DNA of 64,000 bases. Origin: Alphaproteobacteria bacterium (GTDB lineage Bacteria > Pseudomonadota > Alphaproteobacteria > SP197). Shown here in pieces: positions 16,522-63,879 of the stretch. A model generated the notes under the pieces. It worked only from the letters and a program-made list of their open reading frames with translations, had not been told where the DNA came from and did no database searches. Location: NCBI GenBank assembly GCA_009694045.1, contig SHVY01000002.1, forward strand, positions 39,491-103,490, read 5' to 3'. Every line of letters begins with the position of its first letter. Positions within the stretch are counted from its first letter, which is position 1. A program made the translations under genes and the position numbers.

Positions 16522-17393
16522 GCGCGCTCTGGCGGATGACGCTCGCCTGCCCGGCCGCGGCGGTCGCTGCCCTGGTCGATGCCCTCGACGACGGCGTGGG
16601 CACCCTTGCGTCCTATCCCGACGCCGCCCCCGGTCGCTGGCGGATCGAGGCGATCCTGCCCTGCGCGCCGCAACGGGTGGCGATCGAAACGCGCCTCGCC
16701 CTCATCGCCGCGGCCCTCGGCATCGATCCGCCGCCCCTGACGATCGAGCCCCTCGCCGACGTGGATTGGCTCGCCCGCAACCGCGCGAGCTTCCCGCCCA
16801 TCGCCGTTGGCCCGTTCGTCGTGCATGGCGAGGGCGGGAGCGCGACGGGGCGCATCCCGATCCGCATCGACGCGGCCACCGCCTTCGGCACCGGCGAACA
16901 CGCGACGACGCGGGGCTGCCTCCTCGCCCTCGCGGTCGCGGTCCGGCACCGCCGCATCGCCCGCGCCCTCGATGTCGGAACCGGCTCCGGCGTCCTCGCG
17001 ATCGCCGCGGCAAGGCTCTGCCGTGCCCGGGTCCTGGCGGTCGACATCGATCCCGAATCGGTTATGGTCGCCCGACGCCACGTCCGCGTCAACGGGGTGG
17101 CCGACCTGGTGCGCGTGGCGCGCTCCGACGGCTACCGCGCAGCCCTGGTGGCGCGTGGTGCGCCTTACGATCTGGTGCTGGCGAACATCCTCGCCCGGCC
17201 CCTCGCCGCCATGGCCCTGGACCTCGCGCGGGTTCTGGCGCGCGGCGGTGTCGCGATCCTGTCGGGTCTTCTGATCGAGCAGGAGCCCTGGGTGCTGTGG
17301 CCGCAGCGGGCGCAAGGTCTCGCCCTCGCCCGCCGCTGGCGAATCGACGGCTGGTCGACCCTGCTGCTGACCCGGCGGGCCCCTAACCGCTGA
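16518..17393 (+). CDS. prmA: Ribosomal protein L11 methyltransferase
   Basis: PrmA-like sequence with SAM motif LDVGTGSGVLAIAA. GTG at 16518 overlaps the uvrD stop (GTGA); an alternative ATG lies at 16536. Confidence 0.7.
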   Translation: MSALWRMTLACPAAAVAALVDALDDGVGTLASYPDAAPGRWRIEAILPCAPQRVAIETRLALIAAALGIDPPPLTIEPLADVDWLARNRASFPPIAVGPFVVHGEGGSATGRIPIRIDAATAFGTGEHATTRGCLLALAVAVRHRRIARALDVGTGSGVLAIAAARLCRARVLAVDIDPESVMVARRHVRVNGVADLVRVARSDGYRAALVARGAPYDLVLANILARPLAAMALDLARVLARGGVAILSGLLIEQEPWVLWPQRAQGLALARRWRIDGWSTLLLTRRAPNR

Positions 17394-18516
17394 CCGGGTA
17401 GCCCATCGCCCGAGCCCACAGCATCTGGACCTGATGCACTCCGTGCTCGCTGATCTCGGTCATGTCGCGGTCGACGATGAACCGACCCCGGCTATAGCCT
17501 CGCGACCGCAGGCCGCGCTGCACCGCCTCGCAGATTCCCTTGTCTTCCCGCCACAGGGTATTGCCGCCGTAGTTCCGCCGCTCCTCGTTGATCGGCGCGC
17601 CGGGCCGCCGCAGGACCTCGTTGATCGTGCGGGTCGTCCCGACCTCGACCGGCTCGAACCGGAAGGCGACCATCTGCGCCTCGCCGGGCAGGACGTTCAG
17701 GGTGGTGTTGGGCCACAAGTACCAGAAGTCAACGCGCTGCGAGGAATCGTCGCGGCTGAACCGATACGCCCGGTTGTCGGGGTTCCCAGCCCGGCTCAGG
17801 CTGCTGATCCAGGTGTCGTGATTGGTGACCCGGTAGCTCTTGATGTCGACCAGGTCGACGAACGCCGGGTGCGCGGGCGCGCAGTGGTAGCACTCCATGC
17901 AGTTCTCGGCGAGCACCTTCCAGTTCGCCATCAGGTCGGCCGGCGGCGGCGCCGCGAGGTCGGGTCCGGCCGGGCCGGCATAGGCGAGCTCGGCCAGGAA
18001 CGGCACGTGTGCGGCGATCTCCTCGGCGAGGCCCGGATAGGTCTCGGCGATCGCCGCGGCCCCCAGGTCCAGGTTGACGAAATAGAAATCGAGCAGGCGG
18101 TCGACCTTCACCGGTTTCAGGCAGAACGCGCCGCCGTCGAACCCGGCGACGTTCTCGCTGCCCCGGGCACTCCTGAGCCGTCTATCGGCATGGTACGACT
18201 AGGCGTGATAGGGGCAGGTTATGACCTTGGCCCGGCCGCTGCCGCGCAGCAGTTCGTGGGCGCGATGCTGGCAAACGTTGTGGAACCCGCGCACCTCGCC
18301 GTCCTTGCCGCGGATCAGGAACACGCCTTCGCCGACCAGCCAGGTGGCGACGTAGGCGCCGATCTCCGCCAGGCGGCTGGCGTGGGTCACGTACTGCCAG
18401 GATCGGGCGAAGATCTTATCCTTCTCCTCGGCCAGGATCGCGGGGTCGGTGTAGACGCGGCCGGGCAAGGTATGCGCCCGCCGTGGATCGGCGATCAGGG
18501 GCTCGGTGTGGTTCAT
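17383..18516 (-). pseudogene. Rieske (2Fe-2S) ring-hydroxylating oxygenase alpha subunit interrupted by one in-frame TAG (18199-18201) at the Trp of the CPYHGW motif
   Basis: ORFs 18199..18516 and 17383..18111 are in the same frame. CQHRAHELL...CPYHA-TAG-SYHADRRL aligns with CRYHTWTYNLDGSL of the intact paralog at 19400..20596. Confidence 0.7.
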
Positions 18517-18562
18517 GCCCCATTATCACCGCGAATCGAGACCCTGCCAACCGCGCCGGGAC

Positions 18563-19314
18563 TCAAGCACGCACCCAGCGCACCTCGGTGTTGATCGAAC
18601 CATCGGACTCGAGCGTCATCGTCCGGTACCCGGGGCAATCCTCGATGTACGCCAGCGCCCCCGGTTCCAGATCGAACTGGGCCGCGGTCGACGGCGTGCC
18701 CATCAACCTGACGCCGCGGCGCAGCGCATCGACGGCCGCGTGGGCGTGGCCCCAGGCGAGACCACGCACATGGGCGTGGCGATCGATCACCCGGAACAGC
18801 CGGCTCCATCGGCCAGCGGGCAATAGTCCGCGCCGCTCCCCATCTGGATCGGATTGTGATGCAGGCAGATCAGCACCGGCTTCGTCGTCTGCCGGGCCAG
18901 CGTCCGGTCCAACGCGCCCAACCGTTCGGGGCCGAGGTGGCCGTGGTTCTGTCCCGGGATCGTGGTGTCGAGGAACAGGATGCGCCAGCCGCCAGCCGGC
19001 CACAGCGGCTCCGCCCGGATGGTACCGCCCGCGAGGCTCCGCGGCATGGCGGCGGGGTCGTCATGATTCCCCGGCAGGGCGAAGACCGGGACCTCCAGCC
19101 CCACGAGGATGGGGCGCAGACGGCGATAGGCCTCGAGGGAACCATCGGCCACCAGATCGCCGGTCGCCAGGACCGCGTCCGGCGGCCAATCCCCTGCCCT
19201 GGCATGGGCCACGACCCGGCCAAGGGTGGCCAGCGGGTCGACGTCCAGAACGCGTTCGCCCACCCGCGCGGTCAGGTGGCAGTCGCTGATCTGAACCAGG
19301 CGCAATGCAGCCAT
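18563..19314 (-). pseudogene. Metallophosphoesterase (CpdA-like cyclic-nucleotide phosphodiesterase) with a 1-nt frameshift near 18793-18806
   Basis: The N-terminal part (..GNHDD..ICLHHNPIQMGS..LADGAG) is in one frame. The C-terminal part (RLFRVIDRHAHVRGLAWGHAH...PSTAAQFDL...PGYRTMTLESDGSINTEVRWV) is in the +1 frame. Confidence 0.6.
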
Positions 19315-19399
19315 GCCTCACCTCCAACCCGGCGAAGGGTACCATTGCCCAAGCGGGCAGGACTTGCCATCATCCTGGGTGTTGTCGCGGAGACCCGTC

Positions 19400-20596
19400 A
19401 TGGCCCGACCCGTGCCCCGGAAACCCGAGATCGCTGAGCAGCTTCTGCCGCCGGCGGCGTACCTGTCCGACGCTTGGTTCGAGCGCGAGCAGCGCGAGCT
19501 GTTCTCCCGCGCCTGGTCATTCGCCTGCACCACCCCGGACGTGTCGGAGCCCGGCGACTATCTGGTCGTCCAGGTTGGCCGTTACCCGATGTTCGTGATC
19601 CGCGACCGGGACGGCGAGCTGCGCGCCTACCACAACATCTGCCGCCATCGCGGCACCCAGGTGCTGGAGGGCAAGGGCAATCAGCGCCACGGCATCGTCT
19701 GCCGCTACCACACCTGGACCTACAACCTCGACGGCTCCCTGCGCGGCCTGCCGAAGCACGCCGAACTGTTCCCCGACCTGGACGTGAAGCGCATCGGCCT
19801 GCACAAGGGCAGCCTCGGCGTGCTGGGCGACCTCGTGTTCGTCAACCCGGACCCGGACCCGGAGCCCTTCGCCGACTGGCTCGGCGGAATCGAAGGGACC
19901 CACATGTGGCCCCACCGCGTCGCCGGACTCTCGGAGAAGCGCCCAATCCGCTACGACATCGCCTGCAATTGGAAGTTGTTCTGCGAAAACGCGATGGACG
20001 GCTACCACCTGTCCTACCTGCACGACAAGACGCTGATGGGACCAGATTCGATGCGCCAGGATTGGGATGCGGTGGGTCGCCATTGGGTGTTCATCAGCTT
20101 CGGCGAATCGGCGAACCGGCAGGACACTCAGTATTCCCCGATTCCGGGCGTCGATGCCTCGGGCCGCCACCCGGTGGTTTGGCAGTTCTTCCCCAACAGC
20201 GGCGTGCTAGGGACCTCGATCTTCTTCTCGGCCTACACCATCGTCCCGGTCGCCCCCGAACGCTGCTACCTCGAACTGCGCACCTGGATGATGCCGATGG
20301 AGACCCAAAGGGAGGAGAAACGCGTTCGCCCCTCGGGCTCGTCGGGCCACGGCACCATCATGCCCGACGGCAAGCGGTTGATCTCGATCCCGACCCTCAG
20401 CGGCCACGCCATGGACTCCCTGGACTTCCAGATCGAGGACATGTGGATCTGCGAGCGTCAGCAGGGGGCGCTGCGCTCGCCGCGCTTCCAGGTCGGACCG
20501 CTCGCCGCCCGGGTCGAGACCGCGTTGACTTTCTTCCAGCGCAACATCCTCGATTTCGTCCCCCTCGACTCCCCGCTCTCGCGCGCCGCGGAGTAG
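19400..20596 (+). CDS. Rieske (2Fe-2S) aromatic-ring-hydroxylating oxygenase alpha subunit (GbcA/CntA-like)
   Basis: CRHRG..CRYHTWTY Rieske motif plus a C-terminal catalytic domain. Internal ATG at 19400. Confidence 0.8.
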   Translation: MARPVPRKPEIAEQLLPPAAYLSDAWFEREQRELFSRAWSFACTTPDVSEPGDYLVVQVGRYPMFVIRDRDGELRAYHNICRHRGTQVLEGKGNQRHGIVCRYHTWTYNLDGSLRGLPKHAELFPDLDVKRIGLHKGSLGVLGDLVFVNPDPDPEPFADWLGGIEGTHMWPHRVAGLSEKRPIRYDIACNWKLFCENAMDGYHLSYLHDKTLMGPDSMRQDWDAVGRHWVFISFGESANRQDTQYSPIPGVDASGRHPVVWQFFPNSGVLGTSIFFSAYTIVPVAPERCYLELRTWMMPMETQREEKRVRPSGSSGHGTIMPDGKRLISIPTLSGHAMDSLDFQIEDMWICERQQGALRSPRFQVGPLAARVETALTFFQRNILDFVPLDSPLSRAAE

Positions 20597-20691: not shown

Positions 20692-22713
20692 ATGCCGAAG
20701 ACCGTATTTCTCGGCGACGCCGAACTTGCGCGCCTCCTCGCCGCGAGCTCCGCGGGCATCTCGGTCGCGGACGTGCGAGAACTCGTCGCCGGCGTGCTGG
20801 CCGCGCCCGAAGGCTGGGACCCCGACGCCTGGTTGACGCTGGTCGCGCCGCGGCCGTCGCCCGAACTCGCCGAGCAACTTCGCGCCCTCAAGGCGACCCA
20901 GGGCGGTGCCGAGGATTCGGGCCCGAACGGCGCCACCCGCCTCGCGGCCTTGCGCGCGGAACTGGCGCGCCGCGGCTTCGACGGGTTCGTTGTGCCGCTC
21001 GCCGACGAGCACCAGGGCGAATACCTCCCGCCCCGGGCGCGGCGTCTCGCCTGGCTCACCGGCTTCACCGGCTCGTTCGGCCTCGCCGCCGTGCTGGCCG
21101 ATAGGGGTGCGATCTTCGTCGACGGCCGCTACACCCTGCAGGCCGAGGCCCAGGTCGACGGCGCCCTGTTCGAGCGTCATCACCATACCCAGAGCCCGCC
21201 CGAGGCCTGGCTCGCCGCTCATGCGAAGCCGGGCGCCAAGGTCGGCTTCGATCCCTGGCTCCATACCAAGAACGACGTGGAGAAGATTCGCTCCGCCCTC
21301 GCCAAGGTCGGCGTGACGTTCGTGGGCGCGTCCCCCAACCCGCTCGACACGGTGTGGTCCGACCAGCCGCCGCCGCCGATCGCCCCCATCGTCCCCCATG
21401 ACGAGGTCTTTGCCGGCCGCCCCTCCACCGCCAAGCGGCGCGACATCGCCGCCTTGATCGTCAAGGAGGGGGCCGCGGCCTGCGTGCTGTCGGACCCGGC
21501 CTCGATCGCCTGGCTGCTCAACGTCCGGGGCGGCGACGTGCCGAACGCGCCCATGCCCCTCTCCTTCGCCATCGCCCATGCCGACGGCCGGGTCGACCTG
21601 TTCGTCGATCGCCGCAAATTGGCCCCCGGGCTCGGCCAGCATCTCGGCCCCGACGTGGGGTTGCACGATCCCCTCGAACTCGGGTCCGGCATCGACGCCG
21701 CAGTCGCCGGCGGCCGGCGCTTGCTGTGCGACCCGCGCTCCGCTCCCTACTGGGTGTTCGAGCGGGTGCGGGCCGCCGGATCGGAGCCGGTCGAGGCCGC
21801 CGACCCTTGCGCACTTCCGCGCGCCCGCAAGAACCCGATCGAGCTCGACGGTACCCGCGCGGCCCACGTGCGCGACGGCGCCGCCATCACCCGCTACCTG
21901 GCCTGGCTCGAGGTTGCTGCCGCCACAGGCACGCTGACCGAAATCGACGCCGCCGATCGGCTCTATGCCGTGCGCGCCGGGGGGACGCTCTATCGCGGCC
22001 CGAGCTTCGACACGATCTCCGGCGCCGGCCCCAACGGCGCCATCGTCCACTACCACGCGACGCCGGAGACCAACCGCAAGCTGGAGCCGGGTTCGCTGTT
22101 CCTGCTCGATTCGGGCGGGCAGTACCTGGACGGCACCACCGACATCACCCGCACCATCGCCATCGGCACCCCGACGCCAGAGATGCGCCGGCATTTCACC
22201 GCCGTCCTCAAGGGCCACATCGCCCTCGCCCTCGCCCGCTTCCCGGTCGGGACCACCGGATCGCAGCTCGATGCGCTCGCCAGACAGCCCCTGTGGCAAT
22301 TGGGGCTCGACTACGACCACGGCACGGGCCATGGGGTCGGCAGCTATCTCAGCGTTCACGAAGGCCCGCACCGCATCTCGAAGGTGGCTAACTCGGTCGC
22401 TCTCGAACCGGGCATGATCGTCTCCAACGAACCCGGCTACTACCGCGCCGGCGCCTATGGCATTCGCATCGAGAACCTGATCGTGGTGGTCGCGGACGAG
22501 GGCGGCAAGCGCCCCATGCTCCGTTTCGAGACCCTGACCCGCGCGCCCATCGATCTCAACCTGGTCGATCGTTCCATGTTGACGGACACCGAGATCGCCT
22601 GGCTCGACGGCTACCACAAGGAGGTGCGGGAGGCGGTCGGACCATCCCTGGACGCGACTCAGGCGGCGTGGCTCGCGCAGGCGACCCGCCCGCTGGAACC
22701 GATGCCGGGATGA
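20692..22713 (+). CDS. pepP: Xaa-Pro aminopeptidase (M24B, aminopeptidase P)
   Basis: AMP_N and M24 domains (HGTGHGVGSYLSVHEGP) with a C-terminal PepP domain. GGAGAGGGGG RBS. There is a ~70-aa N-terminal extension. Confidence 0.85.
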   Translation: MPKTVFLGDAELARLLAASSAGISVADVRELVAGVLAAPEGWDPDAWLTLVAPRPSPELAEQLRALKATQGGAEDSGPNGATRLAALRAELARRGFDGFVVPLADEHQGEYLPPRARRLAWLTGFTGSFGLAAVLADRGAIFVDGRYTLQAEAQVDGALFERHHHTQSPPEAWLAAHAKPGAKVGFDPWLHTKNDVEKIRSALAKVGVTFVGASPNPLDTVWSDQPPPPIAPIVPHDEVFAGRPSTAKRRDIAALIVKEGAAACVLSDPASIAWLLNVRGGDVPNAPMPLSFAIAHADGRVDLFVDRRKLAPGLGQHLGPDVGLHDPLELGSGIDAAVAGGRRLLCDPRSAPYWVFERVRAAGSEPVEAADPCALPRARKNPIELDGTRAAHVRDGAAITRYLAWLEVAAATGTLTEIDAADRLYAVRAGGTLYRGPSFDTISGAGPNGAIVHYHATPETNRKLEPGSLFLLDSGGQYLDGTTDITRTIAIGTPTPEMRRHFTAVLKGHIALALARFPVGTTGSQLDALARQPLWQLGLDYDHGTGHGVGSYLSVHEGPHRISKVANSVALEPGMIVSNEPGYYRAGAYGIRIENLIVVVADEGGKRPMLRFETLTRAPIDLNLVDRSMLTDTEIAWLDGYHKEVREAVGPSLDATQAAWLAQATRPLEPMPG

Positions 22714-22970
22714 AGCACGCCGGCGACGTGGCTCTGGACCAGCTCGACGATCTGTTGGCCCGCCTCCGCGCCACCGAGACCTTGCGCGAACGCAAGCGCG
22801 GCATCTTCTATCGCGGCGGCACGGCCACCCTTCACTTCCACGAGGACGCCGCCGGACTGTTCGCCGACCTGAAGGTCGGCGCCGCGTTCGAACGCCATCC
22901 GGTGACGACCGCCGTCGAGCGGCGCGCCTTTCTCGCCACCTTTAAACGCCACATCGCACGAGAGCCATGA
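22710..22970 (+). CDS. Hypothetical 86-aa protein, translationally coupled on both sides (ATGA/ATGA)
   Basis: The ATG at 22710 overlaps the pepP stop and its stop overlaps the dmpA1 ATG. No recognisable domain. Confidence 0.4.
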   Translation: MKHAGDVALDQLDDLLARLRATETLRERKRGIFYRGGTATLHFHEDAAGLFADLKVGAAFERHPVTTAVERRAFLATFKRHIAREP

Positions 22971-25422: not shown

Positions 25423-29189
<3,767 letters not shown>

Positions 29190-29203
29190 CGTGGTCGCCG
29201 GCG

Positions 29204-30019
29204 TCAGAGCAAGCCACCGAACGCGCGGCTGATCCACGAGCCTTCGTCCTCGATCGGCTCGAGATTATTGTCGACGAGCAGGCGATAGCTGTCCACGTAC
29301 CAGCCGCTTCCGGGAAAGTTGTAGCCGAGCACAGCCGCCGCCGTCTGGGCTTCGGTTTCGACCCCAAGCGCCAGATAGGTTTCGACCAGCCGGTGCAGCG
29401 CCTCGGGTACGTGGCTCGTCGTCTGGTACTTCTCCAGCACGGTGCGGAACCGGTTGATCGCGCCAATATGGTCGCTGCGCCCCTGGTAGAAGCGCCCGAT
29501 CGCCATCTCCTTGCCGGCCAGATGGTCGTGCGCCAGGTCGATCTTGAGCTTGGCGTCGCGGGCGTAGTCGGTCCCGGGAAACCGTTGCACCACCTCGTCC
29601 AGCGCCTTCATGGCCAGCTCCGTCAAGCGCTGGTCCCGCTGCACGTCCGAGATCTGCTCGTAGTACGACAGCGCGATCAGGTAGTAGGCGTAGTCGACGT
29701 CGTCGTGCCCGGGATGAAGCTGGACGAATCGATCGGCGGCGATGATCGATTCGTCGTAGGCATTGGCCTGATAGTAGGCGTACGCGGCCATCAGCTGAGC
29801 CCGCGTCGCCCAGACCGAGAACGGATGCTGGCGTTCAACCTCGTCGAACGCCTCGGCCGCGACCTCGTACTCCTTCTCCTCCGCCAGGTCGACGGCCCGG
29901 TTGTAGAGCTCCTCGACCGGCTGCTCGACGTAGGAGTCCTCCGTGTCGACGCAAGCCCCGAGCAACAGGACAGCGACCGCGATCAGCGATCCCTTGAGTG
30001 TGATCATCCGCATCGTCAT
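29204..30019 (-). CDS. bamD: Outer-membrane protein assembly factor BamD (TPR lipoprotein)
   Basis: Lipobox LLLGAC and TPR repeats. Confidence 0.8.
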   Translation of the reverse strand: MTMRMITLKGSLIAVAVLLLGACVDTEDSYVEQPVEELYNRAVDLAEEKEYEVAAEAFDEVERQHPFSVWATRAQLMAAYAYYQANAYDESIIAADRFVQLHPGHDDVDYAYYLIALSYYEQISDVQRDQRLTELAMKALDEVVQRFPGTDYARDAKLKIDLAHDHLAGKEMAIGRFYQGRSDHIGAINRFRTVLEKYQTTSHVPEALHRLVETYLALGVETEAQTAAAVLGYNFPGSGWYVDSYRLLVDNNLEPIEDEGSWISRAFGGLL

Positions 30020-30058
30020 GGGGCGGAGTCTAGCATCCGAGCGGTCCCGCGCCCAAGC

Positions 30059-30961
30059 TCACCCAGCCTCCGCGACGCGATCGGGAGCCGGTGCCCCGAG
30101 CGCCTCGTGGCGCCAGGCGTCCGGGTCGGCGAAGAGAGCCCGCAACAGGGCATTGTTGAGCCCATGCCCCGACCGTCTGCCGATGAAACGGCCGATCAGC
30201 GGGGCGCCCGCCAGGTAGAGGTCGCCCAGGGCATCGAGGATCTTGTGGCGGACGAACTCGTTGGCATGCCGCAGCCCGCCCGGGTTCAGCACGCGGTCGC
30301 GGGCCACGACGACGGCATTGTCCAGGGATCCGCCGCGGCCGAATCCGGCGGCCCGCAGCGCGTCCACGTCGTCGAGGAACCCGTACGTGCGGGCCGGCGC
30401 GATCATCGTCCGGAACGATCGCGGGGTCACCGCCACGATGTCGTGCTGCCGCCCGATCGGCGTGCCCGCGTGATCGATGGCGAGGTCGAGCACCAGCCCT
30501 TCGCCCGGCTCCAGGGAGGCGTGGGCGGCGCCATGATCGACGCGCACCAACTTCAACACGCGAATCCCGCGCCGTGGCGCGTCCTGGGCCACCAGCCCGA
30601 CGGCGTCGATCAGGGCGACGAACGGGGCCGCACTGCCGTCCATGATCGGCAACTCAGGGCCGTCGATCTCGATCACCGCATTGTCGATCTCGAGCCCGGC
30701 GAGGGCCGCCATCAGATGCTCGACGGTGGCGACCGTCACGCCGTCGGCCGATCCGATCGACGTCCGCAGGCGGGTTTCGACCACGTGGCTATGCCGCGCC
30801 GGGATGGGCGGGGCGCGATCCCCAAGATCGATGCGGCGAAACTGGATGCCGCCGTCCGCCCGGCCAGGGCGCAAGGTCACGGTGGCGACCACGCCATCGT
30901 GCAGCCCCACGCCGTGAAAGGTCACGGGACCGCCGACCGTCTGCTGCCAGGATTCGCTCAC
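30059..30961 (-). CDS. lpxC: UDP-3-O-acyl-N-acetylglucosamine deacetylase
   Basis: Full-length LpxC. GTG start at 30961. Confidence 0.95.
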   Translation of the reverse strand: MSESWQQTVGGPVTFHGVGLHDGVVATVTLRPGRADGGIQFRRIDLGDRAPPIPARHSHVVETRLRTSIGSADGVTVATVEHLMAALAGLEIDNAVIEIDGPELPIMDGSAAPFVALIDAVGLVAQDAPRRGIRVLKLVRVDHGAAHASLEPGEGLVLDLAIDHAGTPIGRQHDIVAVTPRSFRTMIAPARTYGFLDDVDALRAAGFGRGGSLDNAVVVARDRVLNPGGLRHANEFVRHKILDALGDLYLAGAPLIGRFIGRRSGHGLNNALLRALFADPDAWRHEALGAPAPDRVAEAG

Positions 30962-31005
30962 CGCGCCACCCTAGGGCAATCGTGGGTCGGCGAGAAGGTC
31001 CCGCC

Positions 31006-31166
31006 CCCCGTGTCATGTCCCGAAGGAGACGACACGGGGAGAGAGTTATCTAGTGGTCCGCCCCAAACGCTTGATTCCCGATCATGGTGTTTGGGGCGGA
31101 CCACGGGATGAGAGTCTCATTGGGGGTTTGGCCCGACGGATCGGAATCGATCCGTCGGGCCAAACC
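31006..31166. repeat. Three GC-rich perfect hairpins in the ftsZ-lpxC intergenic region
   Basis: Hairpin 1 at 31006-31039: 9-bp stem CCCCGTGTC/GACACGGGG. Hairpin 2 at 31053-31104: 16-bp stem GTGGTCCGCCCCAAAC/GTTTGGGGCGGACCAC with a 20-nt loop. Hairpin 3 at 31125-31166: 18-bp stem GGTTTGGCCCGACGGATC/GATCCGTCGGGCCAAACC with a 6-nt loop. Confidence 0.5.
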
Positions 31167-31172
31167 ACTAGT

Positions 31173-32795: not shown

Positions 32796-32958
32796 GTCTT
32801 CCTCCAGGGCATTACCGCCCGCCTAAGTTCCACACGCGCGCGATCGCTCGCACGCTCTTGCGCCACGTCTTCGGCCGCTCGGCCTATCCGTCCCTCATCC
32901 CCGTCCCACGCCATGTCCCTCCTCCTTCATGGTTTTGTCCCTTGCGCCACCCCGTCGT

Positions 32959-34212: not shown

Positions 34213-34267
34213 CGCCCCCTCCCCGCCGATCGTGGTGATCTGCCGATGCTCCCCGCCATGCTCCCCC

Positions 34268-42070: not shown

Positions 42071-42074
42071 GGCG

Positions 42075-43163: not shown

Positions 43164-43176
43164 CGCGTGGGGTCCC

Positions 43177-46028: not shown

Positions 46029-46041
46029 CGCCGCAGCCTCC

Positions 46042-47823: not shown

Positions 47824-48128
47824 CGGGTGAATCCTTCCGGTACGATCTCGGCGACCCGTATCGGAACCGCGTCGATGGTCATGATCTGCTGCGCCAACAT
47901 CGGCCCGGCCCCAAGCAGGCGCACCGCATCGGTGGTCAGACGCTCGGGCCTCGCCAGGTACGCCCATTCGGCGTGCAGGACGTGAATCGCCTGCTCGCTC
48001 GCGGCACGGATCGCGTTCAGTTCGGCGAGTTCCTGCTCGCGGAACTTGGCCTGGTAGGTGATCGGGAACAGCGCGAACGCCGACAGAGCAGCGAGCAGAA
48101 GCCAGAGCATGGTCCCGCGCGCGGTCAT
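47820..48128 (-). CDS. ftsL: Cell division protein FtsL-like small bitopic protein
   Basis: ~102 aa with a single TM ([15 protein letters not shown]) and a coiled-coil-like region. It sits in the canonical position between rsmH and ftsI. The ATG at 48128 overlaps the rsmH stop (ATGA). Confidence 0.65.
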
Positions 48129-49081: not shown

Positions 49082-49526
49082 CCACCGGTCCCTTGAGCGA
49101 TAGTCCAAGCCGCGAACGCTCGGCGCGAAGCTGCTGGAACAGCCGCTCGCGATGCTGGGCGCCGGCCGCGGGCTCCCAGATCTGGAAGTACGGTCCGCGC
49201 CCCAGGAATGTTGCCTGATCGGTGATGCGGGCGTAGGCGATCAGATGGTCGGGCAGGATGATCCGGCCTTCGCCGTCGAACGGCACTTCCACCGCCTCGC
49301 TGAACAGGCCCGAGGCCAGATCGCTGCCGTCGCCGAACATGTCGACGATCGAATCGCTCATCCGAGTCATGGCTTGCCGGCCCAGGGCCTCGATCGCATC
49401 CACGCCGTCGCGGATCGAGCGCATCGCCACGATCCCCGGGAAGTTGTCATCGGCCAGGGCCGTGCGGAATGCCGCGGGCACGGAAACCCGGCCCTTGCGG
49501 TCCACTTTGTTGGTGAAAACCCCCAT
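49068..49526 (-). CDS. mraZ: Transcriptional regulator MraZ
   Basis: Internal ATG at 49526 giving [21 protein letters not shown] (first MraZ/SpoVT-AbrB repeat) followed by a second repeat. Confidence 0.85.
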
Positions 49527-49630
49527 GAAGGCGGCAGTCACGCGTCGTTCCCCCAGCTCTCGAATGCCCGAGCGATGCCGCTGGGCGACCCCTTGAAACC
49601 CCACGGCCATAGATAGCCGTTCCGGGCCTG

Positions 49631-49849: not shown

Positions 49850-50258
<409 letters not shown>

Positions 50259-55684: not shown

Positions 55685-55972
55685 ATGACCGAGCAGCCCG
55701 TCGTCCAGATCAACCTGCCGAAACCGCCGAAGGAGGGCGGCGGCGCCTCCCTCGTCTACATTCTCTACCTCTTGAGCTTCGTCCTCGGCGTCACCTTCCT
55801 GATCGGCGTGGTGCTCGCCTATCTCAACCGCGGCGAGGCGCCGGACTGGGTCAAGACCCACTACCAGTTCCAGATCCGCACCTTCTGGATCGGCTTGCTC
55901 TATGGCGCGATCGGCTTCGTCCTGGTGGCGATCGTCGTCGGCATCCCCATCCTGATCGCCACCGCCGTCTAG
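55685..55972 (+). CDS. Small two-TM membrane protein (DUF4870-like) ending at an in-frame TAG; probable interrupted gene, with its conserved-looking tail continuing to 56053
   Basis: The ATG is 1 nt after the EF-G-like stop. After the TAG at 55970 the same frame reads LIVRCIKGLKLVNRGEPVPNPTTWLF, ending at the TGA at 56051-56053. Confidence 0.55.
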   Translation: MTEQPVVQINLPKPPKEGGGASLVYILYLLSFVLGVTFLIGVVLAYLNRGEAPDWVKTHYQFQIRTFWIGLLYGAIGFVLVAIVVGIPILIATAV

Positions 55973-56138
55973 CTCATCGTCCGCTGCATCAAGGGCCTCA
56001 AGCTCGTGAACCGCGGCGAACCCGTCCCCAACCCGACGACCTGGCTGTTCTGAGACGCACATATGCGTTTCCCCCGTTGTCGGAGGGAACGTTTTTGTTT
56101 CTCCCCCGCTCCTCGTGGCAGGGGGGAGGGGGAGGGGG

Positions 56139-59100
56139 ATGCGCGCCACCGCGTCACGCCAGGAAATCGAGGTCTCCGCCTGGCTCAATGACCTCGCGCT
56201 TGACCAGTACGCCACCGCGTTCGCCGCGAACGACATCGACCGCGCGACGCTGGCGACCCTGACCGACGCCGACCTCAAGGAGCTTGGCGTCGCCTCCCTG
56301 GGCCATCGCAAGAAGCTGCTCCAGGCGATCGCGTTGCTCGGGCCGCACCCCTCGCCGTCCGCCGCCAGCTATACGCCCCGCCATCTGGCCGAGCGCATCC
56401 TGGCCGCCCGCGACACCCTCGTGGGCGAACGCAAGGAAGTGACGGTCCTGTTCGCCGACGTGCAGGGCTCCCTTTCCCTCATCGAGGGCCTGGACCCGGA
56501 GCAGTCGGCCGCGCGTCTCGCCCCGGTGATCGAGGCGATGATGGCGGCCGTCCACCGCTTCGAGGGCACCGTCAACAAGGTTCAGGGCGATGGGATCATG
56601 GCGCTGTTCGGCGCCCCCGTGGCCCACGAGGACCACGCGATTCGCGCCGGCTATGCCGCCCTCGCCATGCGCGACGCGATCGCCGCCCAGGCGGAGCGAA
56701 CCCGGCGCGAGCACGGCTACGAGGTGCGCGCCCGTGTCGGCCTGCACTCGGGCGAGGTGGTCGTGCGCGGCATCGGCACCGACCTGAGCGTGGATTACGA
56801 CGCCATCGGCCCGACCGTGCATTTGGCGAACCGCCTGGAACAGCTCGCCCTACCCGGCACCATCCGGATCAGCGCCGCGACCCAGCGCCTGGCCGCCGGG
56901 TTTCTCGCCGTGGCACCCCTGGGGCCGGTCCCGGTCAAGGGCCTGAGCGAGCCCATCGAGATCTTCGATCTCCAGGGCGCCACCGGTGCCCGCAACCGGC
57001 TCCAGGCCCTGGGCGAACGCGGGCTCTCTCCCTTCGTCGGTCGCGCGGGCGAGGTCGCGATGCTCGAACACGCCCTCGACCGCGCCAAGGGGGGCGAAGG
57101 CCGGGTCGTGGGCCTGGTCGGCGAGCCCGGGGTCGGCAAGTCGCGCCTGGCTTTCGAGTTCGCGCGCTCGCCGGGCACCGCCGGCTGCCTTGTTCTCGCC
57201 GGGAGCTCGGTGTCCTACGGTCGGGCAACGTCCTGGCTGCCCGTGATCGACCTGCTGCGCGCATACTTCCGGATCGACGCCGGCGACGACGACGACGAGC
57301 GCGCGGTCCGCGAGAAGGTGATGGGCAAGGTCCTGGCCATCGATCAGTCGCTCGCGCGGGCCGCGCGCATCGTGCTCAGGTTGCTGAAGGTCACGGCGGA
57401 CTTCCCCGAGTGGGACGCGCTGGAGCCGCCGCAGCGCCGCCGTATGACCTTGGATGCGATCCGCGCCCTGCTGCTCGCCGCAGCCGCGATCCAACCGCTC
57501 GTCCTGATCTTCGAGGATCTGCATTGGGCCGACGGCGAGACGTTGGCGCTGCTCGACGGCCTGATCGGGGGCATCGCCACCCATCGGGTGATGCTGTTGG
57601 CGACGCTCCGACCGGAATTCGCCCATGACTGGGGCGGACGCAGCACCTATGCACAGGCCGGCTCGACCCGCTGCCGCCCCTCGGCATCGCGGACTTGCTG
57701 ACCGCGCTCCTGGGCAATGACGCGAGCCTCGGCTCACTCAAGGCCCGGCTCGCCGCCATGGCCGGCGGCAACCCGCTCCACGTCGAGGAAGGCGTGCGCG
57801 CGTTGATCGAACAGGGTTCACTCGTGGGCACGCCTGCCGCCTACCGGTTCATCGGCGACATCGCGAACCTCGCGATGCCGGATGGCGTGCGCGCCATCAT
57901 CGCCGCGCGCATCGATCGCCTGACGCCGGAGCGGAAGCAGCTCCTTCAGGCCGCCTCGGTCGTCGGCAGCGACGTGCCAGTCGATCAACTCGCAGCCATC
58001 GCCGACCTCGATCCGGACACCCTGAAAACGGCGCTCGCGGCGTTGCAGGCGGCTGAGTTCCTCTACGAGACGCGACTGTTCCCAGATCGCCACTTCGCCT
58101 TCAAGCACGCCTTCACCCACGACGTCGCCTACGGCGGCCTTCTCCGAGCACGCCGCCGCGATCTTCACGCCCGGCTCGGCGCCGCGATCGAGGAGTCCCA
58201 AGGTGCCGGTGCCGAGGTTGAGGCCCTCGCCGGCCATTTCGAGCGCGGCGAAGTCTGGGACAAGGCCGCCCGCTACTGGCTCGCGGCAGCCGATCAGGCG
58301 AGGGGACGCTATGCGTATGCGCGCGCACTCGACGTCGGCAAGAAAGCCCTCGCCTGTGCGCAACACCCCACAAGCGACCCCGGTATCAAGCAGTCGATTC
58401 TAACGACCCTAGGCGATTTGGCGGGGTTGTATGGCGACTTCAATGACGCCAATGCTTGGTACGAGCAGGCTCTTCGCGTGCCCTGCTCGGAGGACGCTCG
58501 TCGGTCGATCGACAATCGGGTCCATCGACCATACTTCGCCGGGCCTGACGATGCGCGCGTCGCGTACCACACGCACGGATCGGGAGACGAGTGGGTGATC
58601 GTCTTCTGCCCAAGCCTCTATGAAGTTCGTATTTCCCAGCCGCTGCTCGAGTTGATGTGTCAAACGGTACAGGGTTGTCACGGTTCACCCGCGTGGCGAC
58701 GGACCCTCCGATCCGGCACCGGAGCCTTACACGTTGGCCGAGCAGGCCGCTGACTTCCGGCGGGTAATCGAGAAACTGGGATCTGGTTCCAAGACCGCGA
58801 TCGGGATCTCGCGCGGCGGCACTTTGGCTCTCATCTTGGCTCGAGATCATCCGGGCCTTCTGGATCGAATCGCGCTGGTCGGGACTCCCGTGGACGACTT
58901 GGTGAGCCCAGGATGCCTCTACCCGCGCCCCGACGCGCTATCCGAGAAAACCCTTCAAGCCGTCGAGGACGGAGATTTTCAAACCGCCGCGTCGATTGCC
59001 TCGCACAGTGTTTTCTCGGAGGACGGCTATTTCGATTTCGCCGAGAACTCCATTCGCATATGGCTGGCGCACGGGGAAGCCACGGCTCGCCGTTTGTTGA

Positions 59101-59369
59101 TAGGCTTCCATGGTCCGAACCCGGAATTGGACATCAAGCCATGGTTGGGAACGGTGCGAATACCCACGCTCGTGACACACGGCGTCAATGACCGGCGCGC
59201 CCCGTACGCGGTGTCGAAATACATAGCCAACCAGATTCCTGGGGCGTTGCACTTTGGCTTTCCCGGGCGCGGACACGAGCCGCTCTTCACGGCGCCGGCT
59301 GAATTCCTCGCCGTCCTTGACCAATTCATCAAGACCGGCACCGTGCCGTCCCCTACCCGATCAGGATGA
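56139..59369 (+). pseudogene. Large multi-domain signalling gene (SAM, class III adenylate/guanylate cyclase, AAA/STAND ATPase, TPR), running on without a stop into an alpha/beta-hydrolase domain; disrupted by two +1 frameshifts
   Basis: SAM region WLNDLALDQYATAFAANDID..LKELGVASLGHRKKL; cyclase region KEVTVLFADVQGS..FEGTVNKVQGDGIMALFGAP; AAA region GLVGEPGVGKSRL. Shift 1 at ~57651-57665: ..GGRSTYAQ / RLDPLPPLGIADLLTALLGNDASL..GGNPLHVEE. Shift 2 at ~58653-58661: ..SQPLLELM / KRYRVVTVHPRGDG...GISRGG nucleophile elbow. The ATG at 56139 follows a G-rich RBS. Confidence 0.55.
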
Positions 59370-60728: not shown

Positions 60729-62132
60729 GTGACGGTCGCGAACCCCCCCCTTCGCTCCGGCTGGCGCCGGTGGCTCGCCGCCTCCGCCGTGTACCGCGAG
60801 CGCGCCGTCCTCGTCGTCCTCGCCCTCGGGTTCGCGAGCGGCCTGCCGCTGGCCCTCAGCGGCGCAACCCTCGCCATCCGCCTGCGCGAGGCCGGGCTCG
60901 AGCTCGGCTCCATCGGCCTGTTCGCGGCCGTCGGCGCGCCCTACACCCTCAAGGTCCTGTGGGCACCGCTGGTCGATCACCTGCCGATCCCCGTGCTCAC
61001 GCGGGTCCTCGGGCGCCGGCGCGGCTGGTTGTTGGCAAGCCAGGTCGCCGTCGTGGGCGCGATCCTCGCCCTCGGCGGGGTCGATCCCGAAGGCGCGATC
61101 GGCCTGGTCGCGCTCCTCGCCTTCATCCTCGCCGCCCTGTCCGCGACCCAGGACATCGTGATCGACGCCTACCGGGTAGAAAGCCTGGAGGATCGCCAGC
61201 AAGGCGCCGGAGCCGCCATGGCGGTGTTCGGCTACCGGGTCGGCATGTTGGCCTCGGGTGCGCTCGCCCTGATCCTCGCCGAGCGTCTGCCCTGGGTGGC
61301 GGTCTACCTCGCGATGGCGGCCTTGATGGCGGTGGGCGTGTTCGCGACCCTCCTCGCGCGCGAGCCGGCCGGCGCCGCCGCCCGCGCAGCCGGCGTCCGA
61401 GATCGCGCCGAGGCCGCTCGCCTCGCCGGCCGCCTGGGACTCGCGAACGCCAGGGCGGCGGCGGCCTGGGCCTGGCTCTACCGCGCCGCGGTCCGCCCGT
61501 TCCTCGACTTCATGACCCGGTCGCGATGGCTCTGGGTCCTGCTGTTCGTGGTGCTGTACAAGTTCGGAGACGCTCTGGCCGGCTCCCTCGCCAGCGTGTT
61601 CTACCTCGATATCGGCTTCGCCAAGGACGAGATCGGCGCCGTCGCCAAGGTCTTTGGCTTCGGCGCGACCTTGGTTGGGCTGGCGCTCGGCGGTTGGCTG
61701 CTCAACGCCGTCGGTGCCGTCCGCGCGCTGCTGATCGCCGGCATCCTGCAGCTCCTCTCCAACCTGACCTTCGCCGTCCAGGCCGTGGCGGGCCCGGACC
61801 TGGGGTTCCTCGCCTTCACCATCGCGGCCGAGAACCTGGCCGGCGGGATGGGGACCGCGGCCTTCGTCGCCTACTTGAGCGGCCTGTGCAACGTCGCCTA
61901 CACCGCCACCCAGTACGCCCTGCTGTCGTCCCTCGCCGCGTTCGCGCGCACTCTTCTGGTCACCCCGGCGGGGTTCCTGGTTGAGCGCCTGGACTGGACC
62001 GGCGCGGCCGCCGCCGTTGGCCTAGGAGCCCTGCCCAATCTGCCCTGGATTGGCTTCTTCCTGCTCACCACCCTCGCCGCGGTCCCCGGGCTTCTGCTTC
62101 TCCTGGTCGTCGCGCGGCCGCGACGTGATTAG
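60729..62132 (+). CDS. ampG: Muropeptide permease AmpG (MFS)
   Basis: LGFASGLPLAL...GAPYTLKVLWAPLVD AmpG signature; ~14 TM. GTG start at 60729; TAG stop. Confidence 0.85.
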   Translation: MTVANPPLRSGWRRWLAASAVYRERAVLVVLALGFASGLPLALSGATLAIRLREAGLELGSIGLFAAVGAPYTLKVLWAPLVDHLPIPVLTRVLGRRRGWLLASQVAVVGAILALGGVDPEGAIGLVALLAFILAALSATQDIVIDAYRVESLEDRQQGAGAAMAVFGYRVGMLASGALALILAERLPWVAVYLAMAALMAVGVFATLLAREPAGAAARAAGVRDRAEAARLAGRLGLANARAAAAWAWLYRAAVRPFLDFMTRSRWLWVLLFVVLYKFGDALAGSLASVFYLDIGFAKDEIGAVAKVFGFGATLVGLALGGWLLNAVGAVRALLIAGILQLLSNLTFAVQAVAGPDLGFLAFTIAAENLAGGMGTAAFVAYLSGLCNVAYTATQYALLSSLAAFARTLLVTPAGFLVERLDWTGAAAAVGLGALPNLPWIGFFLLTTLAAVPGLLLLLVVARPRRD

Positions 62133-62204
62133 GTTCGCCCGGTTGGAAATCGGCGCAAGCGGTATCATGTTGACGGAGACGCCGCTTCCCGACGAAGGGG
62201 TTAC

Positions 62205-62598
62205 CTGACCGACCAACCATCGATCCCGGACGAGCCCCGCGCCGAGCGCAAGCTCGCGGCGATCCTGGCGGCCGACGTCGCCGGCTACAGCCGGTTGATG
62301 GGCCAGGACGAGGAAGGGACGCTGCACCGGCTCAACGCGCATCTCGAGGCGCTGGTCGAACCGCGCATCACCGAGCATCGGGGACGCATCGTCAAACGCA
62401 CCGGCGACGGCCTGCTGGTGGACTTCGCCAGCGCGGTCGAGGCGGTCCGCTGCGCCATCGCGGTCCAGGCGGGCATGGCGGCCCGCAATCGCGCGACCCC
62501 TTCGGAACAGCGCATCGAGTTCCGCATCGGCATCAACCTCGGCGATGTCATCATCGTCGGCGACGACATCCATGGCGACGGCGTCAACATCGCGGCCC
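62205..62598 (+). pseudogene. Class III adenylate/guanylate cyclase remnant: no in-frame start codon upstream of the first motif, and the catalytic domain is truncated after GDGVNIAA
   Basis: ERKLAAILAADVAGYSRLMGQDEE..RIVKRTGDGLLVDF..RIGINLGDVIIVGDDIHGDGVNIAA, followed by sequence that is antisense to the MBL gene. An upstream ATG at 62168 lies in a different frame (MLTETPLPDEGVT*). Confidence 0.5.
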
Positions 62599-62714
62599 CG
62601 CACCAGCCAGATGTTGCAGCGGTAGAACGGCTTGACGTGGGGCTCCCAGATCGCCGTGACGCCATTGGTCAGCGTCCGCCACTCGAACCAGTGTCCCGCG
62701 ATCGCAAGGCTCAC
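62589..62714 (-). pseudogene. MBL-fold metallo-hydrolase N-terminal remnant (~42 codons), its GTG start overlapping the pxpA stop (GTGA)
   Basis: SLAIAGHWFEWRTLTNGVTAIWEPHVKPFYRCNIWLVRGRD, followed by sequence antisense to the cyclase remnant. Confidence 0.4.
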
Positions 62715-63499
62715 CGCGCAAGCTCAGCCAATTCCAGCTCGGGCAAGGGCGCCACACGCCAGCCGCCGCCTTCCAGGGCCGTGCGCACCGCACCCGCCAC
62801 CGCGACCGCCGTCGGCTCGTCGCCGTGGACGCAGAACGAGTCGATCCGTGCCGGTATCCGCTTGCCGCCGACCGAGAACAACGCGCCCTCCCCCGCCATG
62901 CGCAAGACGTGGTCCACGGCCTTGGCGGGATCGCGGATCAGGGCGTAGTCCAGCTTGCGCGAGGTCAGGTTGCCATCCTCGTCGTAGGTGCGGTCGGCGA
63001 AGGCTTCTTCCGCCACCGCGAGACCCGCCGCGCGGCCCGCCTTCGCCATGGCCGAGCCCGCGACCGCGAGGAAGATCAGGCCGCGGTCCACGCCCCGGAT
63101 TCCTCGCGCGATGGCCGCCGCCAGGTCGTCCTCGACCGCGGCCAGGTTGGAGAGCGCCCCGTGCGGCTTCACATGGCTTACCCGCCCGCCAGCGAGCGCC
63201 GCCACCCCCATCAGCGCGCCGATCTGGTAGGCGACCATGGCCTCGACCTCGGCCCCGCTCATGCGCATGGGTCGCCGCCCGAAGCCCTGCAGGTCGGGGA
63301 ACGACGGATGGGCGCCCAGGCTCACGCCCGCGGCCACGGCACCCTTCACCGTCGCCGCCATCACGCTGGGATCGCCGGCGTGGAAGCCGCAGGCGACGTT
63401 GGCCGACGCGACGATGCGAAACAGCTCGACATCCGCGCCCATCCGCCAGGCGCCGAAACTCTCGCCCATGTCGGCGTTCAGGTTGATCGACCTCGCCAT
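62711..63499 (-). CDS. pxpA: 5-oxoprolinase subunit A (LamB/YcsF family)
   Basis: MARSINLNADMGESFG start and LamB_YcsF fold sequence. No pxpB/pxpC neighbours in the window. Confidence 0.85.
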   Translation of the reverse strand: MARSINLNADMGESFGAWRMGADVELFRIVASANVACGFHAGDPSVMAATVKGAVAAGVSLGAHPSFPDLQGFGRRPMRMSGAEVEAMVAYQIGALMGVAALAGGRVSHVKPHGALSNLAAVEDDLAAAIARGIRGVDRGLIFLAVAGSAMAKAGRAAGLAVAEEAFADRTYDEDGNLTSRKLDYALIRDPAKAVDHVLRMAGEGALFSVGGKRIPARIDSFCVHGDEPTAVAVAGAVRTALEGGGWRVAPLPELELAELAR

Positions 63500-63582
63500 T
63501 TCACCTCCGCGCGCGTAAGCACCCTGCTCTCAAAACACTAACACAAGCGCGGTCGTGTCGGACCGGAGCCAAATGTCGTCGC

Positions 63583-63879
63583 TCAGTGCGGCGCCGACGA
63601 CTGCCGGGTGAATGTCACGAGTGGCTCGCAGGATCCTTTGGCCAAGTTGCGCCGCACGACATCCGCGAAGGATTTTGTGTCCTTGATCTGTTGCAGTCCC
63701 AAGGGTGTGAAGGTCTCCGGACCAAAGGCGTTGGCGGCAAGCAGGGGGTTCGTCAGGGCTTGGGAGAAAGCGCCGGATCCGACCATCTGCCCCATGAGTG
63801 GCGGGATGACGGAGGTCTTGCCACGGCCCTCGGCAATGAGCCAGCTCGACCCGATCGACCCCCTTGACGCCACCAACAT
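63583..63879 (-). CDS. Hypothetical ORF or fragment in a lower-GC segment at the window end (weak VirD4/TraG-like GK..VIPxL resemblance)
   Basis: MLVASRGSIGSSWLIAEGRGKTSVIPPLMGQMVGSG... Four codons upstream of the ATG there is an in-frame TAG, and the frame stays open above it. Confidence 0.25.
   Translation of the reverse strand: MLVASRGSIGSSWLIAEGRGKTSVIPPLMGQMVGSGAFSQALTNPLLAANAFGPETFTPLGLQQIKDTKSFADVVRRNLAKGSCEPLVTFTRQSSAPH

Follow-up and report, generated by a model that had tools for sequence, protein, structure and literature searches.

Disrupted accessory genes beside an intact core block in a Lake Baikal alphaproteobacterium: probable gene decay in a natural population

Do several broken genes beside a flawless core block reflect real gene decay, or a poor draft assembly? 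The question is raised by a 64-kb stretch of DNA (the window) from an alphaproteobacterial metagenome-assembled genome (MAG) of ~70% GC, which derives from Lake Baikal bathypelagic metagenomes. In the window, 44 CDS translate without an internal stop, and seven accessory genes are disrupted. This count is slightly above that of an earlier note, which had claimed at least six; the seven remnants carry at least ten lesion events in total. As independent comparison data, we used the Logan contigs of two Illumina libraries, SRR8561390 (1250 m) and SRR8561391 (1350 m), together with three ENA contigs; all of this material consists of consensus contigs. The Logan contigs match the window at 99.85–100%. 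The window itself is a haplotype mosaic, as positions 15558–19565 are identical to an SRR8561391 contig and positions 55117–60112 to an SRR8561390 contig. We give a probability of roughly 85% to the reading that the remnants are true pseudogenes, carried by a natural population of this free-living, uncultured high-GC alphaproteobacterium of the deep lake and produced by ordinary decay under relaxed selection. Taken as a whole, the earlier observation is partly confirmed.

The lesions are unevenly distributed. The 20-gene core block (ligA, recN, bamD, lpxC, ftsZ, ftsA, ftsQ, ddl, murB, murC, murG, ftsW, murD, mraY, murF, murE, ftsI, ftsL, rsmH and mraZ; 25423..49613, minus strand) is intact, as had been claimed. 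It is covered nearly end to end by NCBIfam models without internal stops; FtsQ is matched partially and FtsL has no model match, and both are uninterrupted ORFs, the FtsL length agreeing with an independent gene call. Two RNA genes that served as controls for core features, the two-piece alphaproteobacterial tmRNA (8049..8390, plus strand) and the class A RNase P RNA (49851..50254, minus strand), are also intact. The disrupted genes sit in two flexible regions flanking the block. The 41.6 kb of core CDS are free of lesions, whereas the 18.5 kb of accessory CDS contain at least eight events, so the restriction to accessory genes holds. By gene, 7 of 19 accessory and 0 of 32 core genes are disrupted (Fisher's exact test, p = 4e-4, with the core and accessory classes assigned post hoc), and a uniform distribution of lesions, as in a poor assembly, is rejected within the window. 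The pseudogene fraction is ~13%, a value for the examined 64 kb only. Frameshifts suspected at ~900, ~6260, 8904, 27500 and 30059 are boundaries between separate intact genes (ooxA-like/DAO, RidA/SDR, SspB/FumC, LigA/RecN and BamD/LpxC, respectively).

The first flexible region contains a Rieske oxygenase alpha-subunit pseudogene (17383..18516, minus strand). An amber codon (TGG>TAG, 18199–18201) directly follows the CPYHA sequence and breaks off the Rieske domain at profile position 66 of 88, and the Ring_hydroxyl_A domain continues in the same frame as before the stop. Trp occupies the amber site in 118 of 118 homologs. A second substitution, Gly>Arg (AGA, 18181–18183), also strikes a residue that is Gly in all 118, and the relative P0243, 80% identical, retains both residues. 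In SRR8561390 (contig L003), an extra GG at ~18133 shifts the frame. The repaired ORF aligns with residues 5–368 of CntA, the oxygenase subunit of carnitine monooxygenase (PDB 6y8j; E = 1e-71), sharing the CxH...CPYHAW Rieske motif and the catalytic domain; 6y8j has Trp at the stop position. The window gene differs from CntA in its interruption at the motif Trp and its Gly>Arg change, and no CntB-type reductase gene adjoins it. From this alignment, the gene is predicted to have encoded a CntA-like monooxygenase of the carnitine/quaternary-amine type; its substrate is uncertain, because the NCBIfam GbcA score is far under the cutoff of that model. A second Rieske oxygenase alpha subunit (19403..20596, plus strand; 28% identity to the pseudogene) is intact. 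Between the samples, it varies by an in-frame 6-bp indel (19845–19856) and one Ala/Thr SNP (19871). Thus, the only indel variation of the intact paralog keeps the frame, whereas that of the pseudogene is the frameshifting GG.

Between the two Rieske genes lies a pseudogene of a CpdA/Icc-like class III cyclic-nucleotide phosphodiesterase (18563..19314, minus strand). A 1-bp deletion at ~18800–18802 leads to a premature TGA at 18787–18789, and each of the four contigs compared has the gene split into calls of 175 + 75 aa. Once repaired, the protein aligns collinearly with Rv0805 on both sides of the shift and shares the metallophosphoesterase motifs of CpdA, Icc and Rv0805 in the same order (D-x-H, GD, GNHD, HH and GHxH); the window gene differs from them in being frameshifted. 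Against the CpdA model NF008359, the repaired protein covers positions 14–260 of 275 with 164 bits. As this is below the equivalog cutoff of 225 bits, we call the protein CpdA-like rather than CpdA.

In the second flexible region, a gene for a DUF4870 small membrane protein (55685..56053, plus strand) carries an amber codon at 55970–55972 (TGG>TAG). The conserved C-terminus runs on in frame past the stop, and the site is Trp in 113 of 113 homologs. This lesion is polymorphic. A different contig from the same ENA deposit (ERZ1305449) carries an intact 122-aa allele with TGG (P0001) that is otherwise 100% identical. The truncated 95-aa product could retain some function.

The next disrupted gene encoded a SAM/class III cyclase/AAA_16 (STAND)/TPR/alpha-beta hydrolase protein (56139..59369, plus strand), and it is now split over three frames by two frameshifts. 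Its top match, P0121 (70% identity over 99% of the length), is one uninterrupted ORF of 1077 aa and is collinear with the three parts (residues 4–507, 500–843 and 845–1072). The first frameshift, a 1-bp deletion at 57660, is polymorphic, being missing in contig L002 and in one ENA contig. The second, a +1 insertion at ~58664–58667, is present in every contig seen. Slippage in a (TG)n repeat was ruled out as its origin, since in the P0121 alignment one surplus base separates CAA from TAC. A SNP at 56214 is a derived Ala>Thr change, P0121 having Ala. An 871-aa product of the gene could retain some function. The same domain order and length characterize a family of about 1050–1080 aa, annotated as 'class 3 adenylate cyclase/pimeloyl-ACP methyl ester carboxylesterase'; most of the best 120 matches listed are full-length proteins of this size, whereas the window member is split. 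Among the matches listed, the genomic context of the two closest relatives is unrelated to that of the window gene and is not conserved.

Downstream, a class III adenylate/guanylate cyclase fragment (62202..62597, plus strand) covers Pfam profile positions 9–134 of 183 and terminates at GDGVNIAA; no in-frame start codon is present upstream of its domain. The TAG at 62130–62132, which lies between the AmpG-like gene and the cyclase and was considered as a further lesion, is simply the AmpG stop codon. The cyclase fragment abuts the N-terminal 40 codons of a convergent MBL-fold hydrolase gene (62598..62714, minus strand), which indicates that one deletion took the 3' ends of both genes. When intact, this hydrolase gene would have about 245 codons, and a 244-aa homolog is intact in Azospirillum B510. 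The start of the fragment overlaps the pxpA stop codon. At the window end lies the decayed 3' remnant of an animal-haem-peroxidase-family gene (63583..64000, minus strand, running off the window), whose final ~85 codons (63583..63840) remain in frame. From ~63845 upstream, peroxidase homology is found in a different frame (VDRVEL, DPDV), and the remnant carries a frameshifting deletion, further deletions and at least two stops. The independent assemblies break at ~63918–64037, just beyond it. Neither the 40-aa MBL fragment nor the 98-aa ORF had a Pfam match, and both were identified by tblastn against plasmids (for the MBL fragment, annotated MBL genes with E down to 5e-10) and an exhaustive HMMER search. 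The earlier note had pointed to a TAG just upstream of the ORF 63583..63879. A TAG at 63892–63894 is indeed in frame with this ORF; since the peroxidase homology there is in another frame, it does not replace an ancestral Trp codon. Accordingly, where two or three TGG>TAG ambers had been proposed, the Rieske and DUF4870 ambers stand and the third does not.

Uninterrupted homologs thus span the lesions of the Rieske, CpdA-like, DUF4870, STAND, MBL and peroxidase genes. Relaxed constraint is evident from the Gly>Arg change and the +2 shift in the Rieske gene, the second frameshift in the STAND gene, and the stops and deletions in the peroxidase remnant. Under the decay reading, ordinary mutations would strike genes across the whole region. 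Those falling in housekeeping genes (among them the dcw cluster, lpxC, bamD, recN, ligA and the genes for RNase P RNA and tmRNA) would be cleared by purifying selection. Those in dispensable accessory genes would be tolerated and would drift to fixation or still be segregating, and dead genes would gather further lesions. In the Rieske gene, the shared amber would have come first, followed by Gly>Arg and then the sample-specific +2 frameshift. In the STAND gene, the shared hydrolase frameshift would have preceded the polymorphic frameshift and the Ala>Thr change, and the peroxidase remnant would have accumulated many lesions. Three loss-of-function variants are still polymorphic, namely the DUF4870 amber, the first STAND frameshift and the Rieske GG insertion. 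Of the seven dead genes, three fall within cyclic-nucleotide signalling, namely the two class III cyclases and the CpdA-type phosphodiesterase. This fits a functional module being lost, rather than hits at random. An AmpG-like protein scan of genome contigs yielded distant relatives only (at most 57% identity), without synteny and without homologs of the disrupted genes; the scan did not show an intact ancestral locus.

The coherence of this module, two cyclases and a matching phosphodiesterase all dead, also suits another reading, in which losing cyclic-nucleotide signalling, the quaternary-amine oxygenase and the peroxidase is beneficial in the cold oligotrophic bathypelagic niche. Null alleles would then rise by selection, or be kept by frequency dependence of the Black Queen type, rather than by drift, and several null alleles are in fact common enough to form the consensus in some samples, the consensus in others being the intact allele. 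However, repeated hits in one gene and a simple GC>AT spectrum are just what is expected of neutral relaxation, and the remnants are still present, though streamlining selection would favour their deletion. We therefore regard adaptive loss as unlikely. The lesions in the region comprise GC>AT transitions, 1–2-bp indels and one larger deletion, and every substitution of inferable direction is G>A on the coding strand. Both nonsense hits are TGG>TAG (2/2), which is mildly unexpected under simple mutation models (p = 0.003–0.04) and, with n = 2, may hint at a context effect. In work by Coulondre and Miller on lacI, amber-mutation hotspots were reportedly located at 5-methylcytosine in CCWGG sites. 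The Rieske amber (CCTGG>CCTAG) is what deamination of the inner methylated C on the opposite strand would produce, whereas neither the DUF4870 amber (TCTGGC) nor any other G>A change lies in CCWGG. As CCWGG sites are not depleted (369 observed against 361 expected) and one of the two ambers fits, a Dcm-type hotspot is a candidate lead only. In an extended form of adaptive loss, the cyclic-nucleotide module, the oxygenase and the peroxidase would be caught midway in selective dismantling, with intact and null haplotypes coexisting and recombining, and a CTGG>CTAG hotspot resembling m5C deamination might add ambers. We think this improbable; the three haplotype combinations observed could come from chimeric consensus assembly rather than real recombination.

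A draft-quality artefact, in which faulty sequencing or assembly of a poor MAG created the stops and frameshifts, is very unlikely, even though the source is a metagenome-assembled genome and the window is itself a mosaic of haplotypes. The earlier note had placed the frameshifts in G/C runs and considered that they fit indel-type sequencing error. Neither point is borne out: no lesion lies in a homopolymer run, none of the frameshift contexts (GCC-GG-CTG, GGCC[A]GGCT and CAAACGGTAC) being a homopolymer of at least four bases, and the same lesions recur in the separately assembled contigs of SRR8561390 and SRR8561391 and in the three ENA contigs, where the gene calls are split alike, so that they are real in the DNA at the contig level. 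Their absence from the core CDS, their positions at invariant residues and the secondary lesions piling up in already dead genes also argue against an artefact. The claim that the ambers reflect real mutational decay is upheld. Recoding, in which TAG is read as Trp or read through, the frameshifts are programmed and the genes are functional, is hardly credible: both ambers fall exactly at invariant Trp codons, as a TAG-to-Trp reassignment would look, but TAG serves as the stop codon of 8 of the 44 intact genes, thyX, sspB, fumC, htrA and ampG among them, which excludes it, and it is further opposed by the TGG allele of DUF4870 coexisting in the same sample set, the additional Rieske lesions, the presence/absence polymorphism of the first STAND frameshift, homologs that are single ORFs in one frame and contexts free of slippery heptamers. 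The 64-kb window contains no tRNA gene.

For the window, the lesions are biological rather than a sign of draft quality. Natural decay under relaxed selection would make it a small, clean case of gene loss under way in a free-living planktonic bacterium, in which hits accumulate in order, null alleles coexist with intact ones across depths and a cAMP/cGMP signalling module is lost coherently. Annotation should treat the ORF fragments (105 + 242 aa, 175 + 75 aa, 95 aa, 520 + 352 + 159 aa, a spurious ORF of 230 aa, and 98 aa) as pseudogenes instead of hypothetical proteins.

No new mechanism is revealed. Unitary pseudogenes that nonsense mutations, frameshifts and deletions create when selection is relaxed are catalogued in bacteria such as Mycobacterium leprae, Salmonella Typhi and Yersinia pestis. 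The window resembles these genomes in its single-base nonsense mutations at conserved codons, 1–2-bp indels and deletions, and also in that secondary hits stack up and dispensable genes are struck while the core stays intact. It differs in that no IS elements are seen in it and several lesions are polymorphic within the population, and its host is free-living lake plankton rather than a recently host-restricted pathogen.

The lesions in the window are confined to accessory genes. According to the codon-usage log-likelihood frame map of the window, in which every coding segment was annotated with Pfam or NCBIfam, 44 CDS translate without an internal stop and seven genes are disrupted. The GC content is approximately 70%, so shadow ORFs dominate the raw ORF lists. 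Suspected frame switches at ~900, ~6260, 8904, 27500 and 30059 are the borders of complete adjacent genes. At least eight independent events were found in 18.5 kb of accessory CDS against none in 41.6 kb of core CDS within the window, and 7/19 accessory genes versus 0/32 core genes were hit (Fisher's exact test by gene, p = 4e-4, with the classes assigned after the data had been seen). The restriction to accessory genes proposed in the earlier note thus holds in this window.

The same note described an intact core block of 20 genes, and this is borne out. On the minus strand (25423..49613), ligA, recN, bamD, lpxC, ftsZ, ftsA, ftsQ, ddl, murB, murC, murG, ftsW, murD, mraY, murF, murE, ftsI, ftsL, rsmH and mraZ are arranged in this order. 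The products span their NCBIfam models nearly whole (LigA 2-663 of 664, RecN 1-562 of 563, MurC 2-447 of 449 and MraY 2-321 of 321). FtsL has no model match and FtsQ has a partial match only; both are uninterrupted ORFs, and the length of FtsL is the same as in an independent gene call.

The non-coding genes identified using ARAGORN and Rfam are also intact. The alphaproteobacterial two-piece (permuted) tmRNA gene (8049..8390) is located directly upstream of sspB (8413..8904), whose product is the adaptor that hands ssrA-tagged proteins to ClpXP, a functional pairing. The RNase P RNA gene (49851..50254) occupies the interval that separates mraZ from the gene of the AmpD-like amidase, and therefore the seemingly long 'intergenic' stretch upstream of the dcw cluster is not empty. 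An 86-aa ORF (22710..22970) with good coding statistics has no Pfam or NCBIfam match, and overlaps two peptidase genes, M24 at its stop and the first S58 (DmpA-type) at its start. Since the gene calls of every independent contig include this ORF, it probably encodes a genuine small subunit or partner.

The disrupted genes lie in two flanks around the conserved block (17.4-19.3 kb and 55.7-64 kb), and both flanks may be regarded as flexible. In the first flank, the Rieske oxygenase pseudogene (17383..18516, minus strand) has an in-frame TAG at 18199-18201 and reads ...ITCPYHA*SYHADRRL... around the stop. The Rieske domain is cut at position 66 of the 88-position Pfam profile, and the frame then continues into the catalytic domain, Ring_hydroxyl_A. 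After repair, the protein aligns with CntA, a carnitine monooxygenase (PDB 6y8j), with E = 1e-71, and CntA has CPYHAW...LDGSL where the pseudogene has its stop. In all 118 motif-bearing database homologs, Trp is present at the stop position, and Gly is present where the pseudogene has Arg (AGA, 18181-18183). In P0243, the nearest relative at 80% identity, the sequence here is CPYHAWSYHADGRL, which indicates that the amber and the Gly>Arg change are both derived G>A transitions. In the database homolog search no intact allele was found, the closest full-length protein being 65% identical. Simple redundancy after a recent duplication is unlikely, since the identity of the dead gene to the intact neighbouring Rieske paralog is only 28%.

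The CpdA-like phosphodiesterase pseudogene (18563..19314, minus strand) has lost 1 bp at ~18800-18802, where the context is GCC-GG-CTG. The N-terminal frame terminates with ...CPLADGAGCSG*, and the motif-carrying continuation LFRVIDRHAHVRGLAWGHAH is in another frame. With a one-residue bridge, the protein is collinear with Rv0805, and it matches positions 14-260 of 275 of the CpdA equivalog NF008359 at 164 bits, which is below the cutoff.

In the second flank, the gene of a DUF4870 membrane protein (55685..56053, plus strand) has an in-frame amber and reads ...PILIATAV*LIVRCIKGLKLVNRGEPVPNPTTWLF*. The amber position is Trp in 113/113 homologs. The best database match to the repaired protein is P0001 (122 aa), which is 100% identical and has Trp at this position. 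As P0001 is encoded next to the same neighbours on a different contig of ENA analysis ERZ1305449, the amber is a segregating null allele.

The adjacent pseudogene (56139..59369, plus strand) encodes SAM, class III cyclase, AAA_16 (STAND), TPR and alpha-beta hydrolase domains, and is broken by two frameshifts. Most of the best 120 matches listed are full-length proteins of ~1050-1080 aa with exactly the same architecture. The best among those listed, P0121 (1077 aa, 70% identity), is collinear with the pseudogene in three frames (residues 4-507, 500-843 and 845-1072). At the first frameshift (fs1), an A is missing at 57660, where the window has CAGGCCGGCTC and L002, a contig assembled from the 1350 m sample, has CAGGCCAGGCTC. 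The second (fs2) is a single additional base between CAA and TAC at ~58664-58667. Programmed frameshifting in the broken genes is excluded because the orthologs are in a single frame and fs1 is polymorphic.

A class III cyclase domain fragment (62202..62597, plus strand) ends with GDGVNIAA, having covered the profile as far as position 134 of 183. The next base already belongs to an MBL-fold hydrolase gene on the minus strand, of which the N-terminal 40 residues are left and whose start overlaps the pxpA stop codon. In tblastn against annotated plasmids, these residues align with N-termini of MBL fold metallo-hydrolases, with E values as low as 5e-10, and the Azospirillum B510 homolog has 244 aa. 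As the two fragments adjoin base to base, a single deletion would have taken the 3' ends of both convergent genes. Upstream of the cyclase domain, no in-frame ATG, GTG or TTG was found within 62133..62260, and there may be an additional 5' frameshift near 62200; the cyclase homologs are highly variable at the N-terminus. An ATG at 62167 begins a short ORF (MLTETPLPDEGVT*) in a different frame from the fragment.

At the end of the window, an exhaustive HMMER search and Pfam identified a haem-peroxidase remnant (63583..64000, minus strand). Residues 14-96 of its 98-aa ORF align with the very C-terminal end of ~200-1100-aa proteins; ten of these HMMER matches were scanned with Pfam, and all of them have an animal haem peroxidase domain. 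The similarity moves to another frame upstream of ~63845 (DPDV...VKGVDRVEL in the window, DPDV...YRSVDDVEL in the homologs). About 8 bp are missing at the VEL/LIAE junction, and a further, internal deletion as well as two stops in the upstream frame are present; the region is apparently an older remnant with multiple hits. The TAG at 63892-63894, taken earlier for a third in-frame amber, is in the frame of the surviving ORF, but the ancestral frame reads GGG ATA GTC, and no Trp>amber change occurred. The independent assemblies all stop ~40-160 bp upstream of the 98-aa remnant (~63918..64000 and beyond). Such assembly ends suggest that a repeat, mobile element or strain-variable region lies just beyond the window, and it may have destroyed the peroxidase gene.

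The truncated products were looked up by exact sequence. They were found in independently assembled Logan contigs of SRR8561390 and SRR8561391, which sampled Lake Baikal at depths of 1250 m and 1350 m (PMC7678222), and in three contigs of ENA analysis ERZ1305449. One fragment is also annotated on a 103.5-kb contig of the NCBI MAG 'Alphaproteobacteria bacterium' (locus tag EXQ94_). The earlier note considered frameshifts in G/C runs as sequencing error; no indel lies within a homopolymer run. The lesions are not an assembly artefact. Common to all contigs are the Rieske amber, the division of CpdA into 175 + 75 aa, the frameshift in the hydrolase part and the cyclase/MBL junction.

The samples differ at other sites. 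Over 55117-60112, the window has 100% identity to L001 (1250 m) and two differences from L002; over 15558-19565, it has 100% identity to L004 (1350 m) and four differences from L003 (1250 m). The window is a mosaic of haplotypes. L002 and one ENA contig lack fs1, and the STAND gene there codes for 871 aa; L002 also keeps the ancestral G at 56214. L003 has an additional GG (+2) within the Rieske pseudogene. In the intact Rieske paralog, only one Ala/Thr SNP and the copy number of an in-frame 6-bp unit distinguish the samples; CCGGGT (19845..19856) stands in two tandem copies in the window against one in L003, giving 398 and 396 aa. Frameshifting variants in the dead genes against in-frame variants in the live neighbour are the signature of relaxed versus maintained constraint.

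The shared lesions (the Rieske amber, the CpdA deletion, fs2, the cyclase/MBL deletion and the peroxidase decay) would be the older ones, and the DUF4870 amber, fs1 and the Rieske +GG would be younger and still segregating. One ENA contig has an intact DUF4870 allele but carries fs1. Three allele combinations at 55971 and 57660 were observed, plus the inferred ancestor, and these would imply recombination or recurrence. The compared assemblies are Illumina consensus sequences, and chimeric consensus assembly is a possible source of the combinations.

All substitutions with inferable direction, namely the two ambers, Gly>Arg and the Ala>Thr at 56214, are coding-strand G>A changes, in agreement with the general mutational bias from GC to AT. 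The amber in the Rieske pseudogene is CCTGG>CCTAG in a Dcm-type CCWGG site, the classic context of 5-methylcytosine deamination; the remaining changes are outside CCWGG, and CCWGG is not depleted. With the codon usage of the window, 63-68% of the possible single-base nonsense changes give TAG, and an amber preference is therefore expected. The share of TGG>TAG is 5-21%, varying with transition bias, so that two of two nonsense hits have p = 0.003-0.04, a curiosity at n = 2. Both ambers (18199..18202 and 55969..55972) are CTGG>CTAG. With 20 occurrences against ~55 expected, CTAG is strongly depleted in the window, and these ambers account for two of the 20. The ambers are not read as sense by TAG recoding: TAG ends 8/44 intact genes (TGA 34, TAA 2), the TGG allele coexists at the DUF4870 site, more disabling changes are present in the Rieske pseudogene, and no tRNA gene is present within the 64 kb.

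Three of the seven dead genes are parts of cyclic-nucleotide signalling. The loss of two class III cyclases and the CpdA-like phosphodiesterase suggests that a whole cAMP/cGMP module became dispensable, rather than unrelated genes being hit. No close relative was apparent among 185,579 GTDB species representatives; the best match of AmpG (60729..62132) is only 57% identical, with no syntenic locus, and the lineage appears to be without a close sequenced relative in this set. Accessory-gene pseudogenization in the window is well supported as real. It is of the ordinary kind, with no new mechanism, and its sole unusual feature is the clear population polymorphism.
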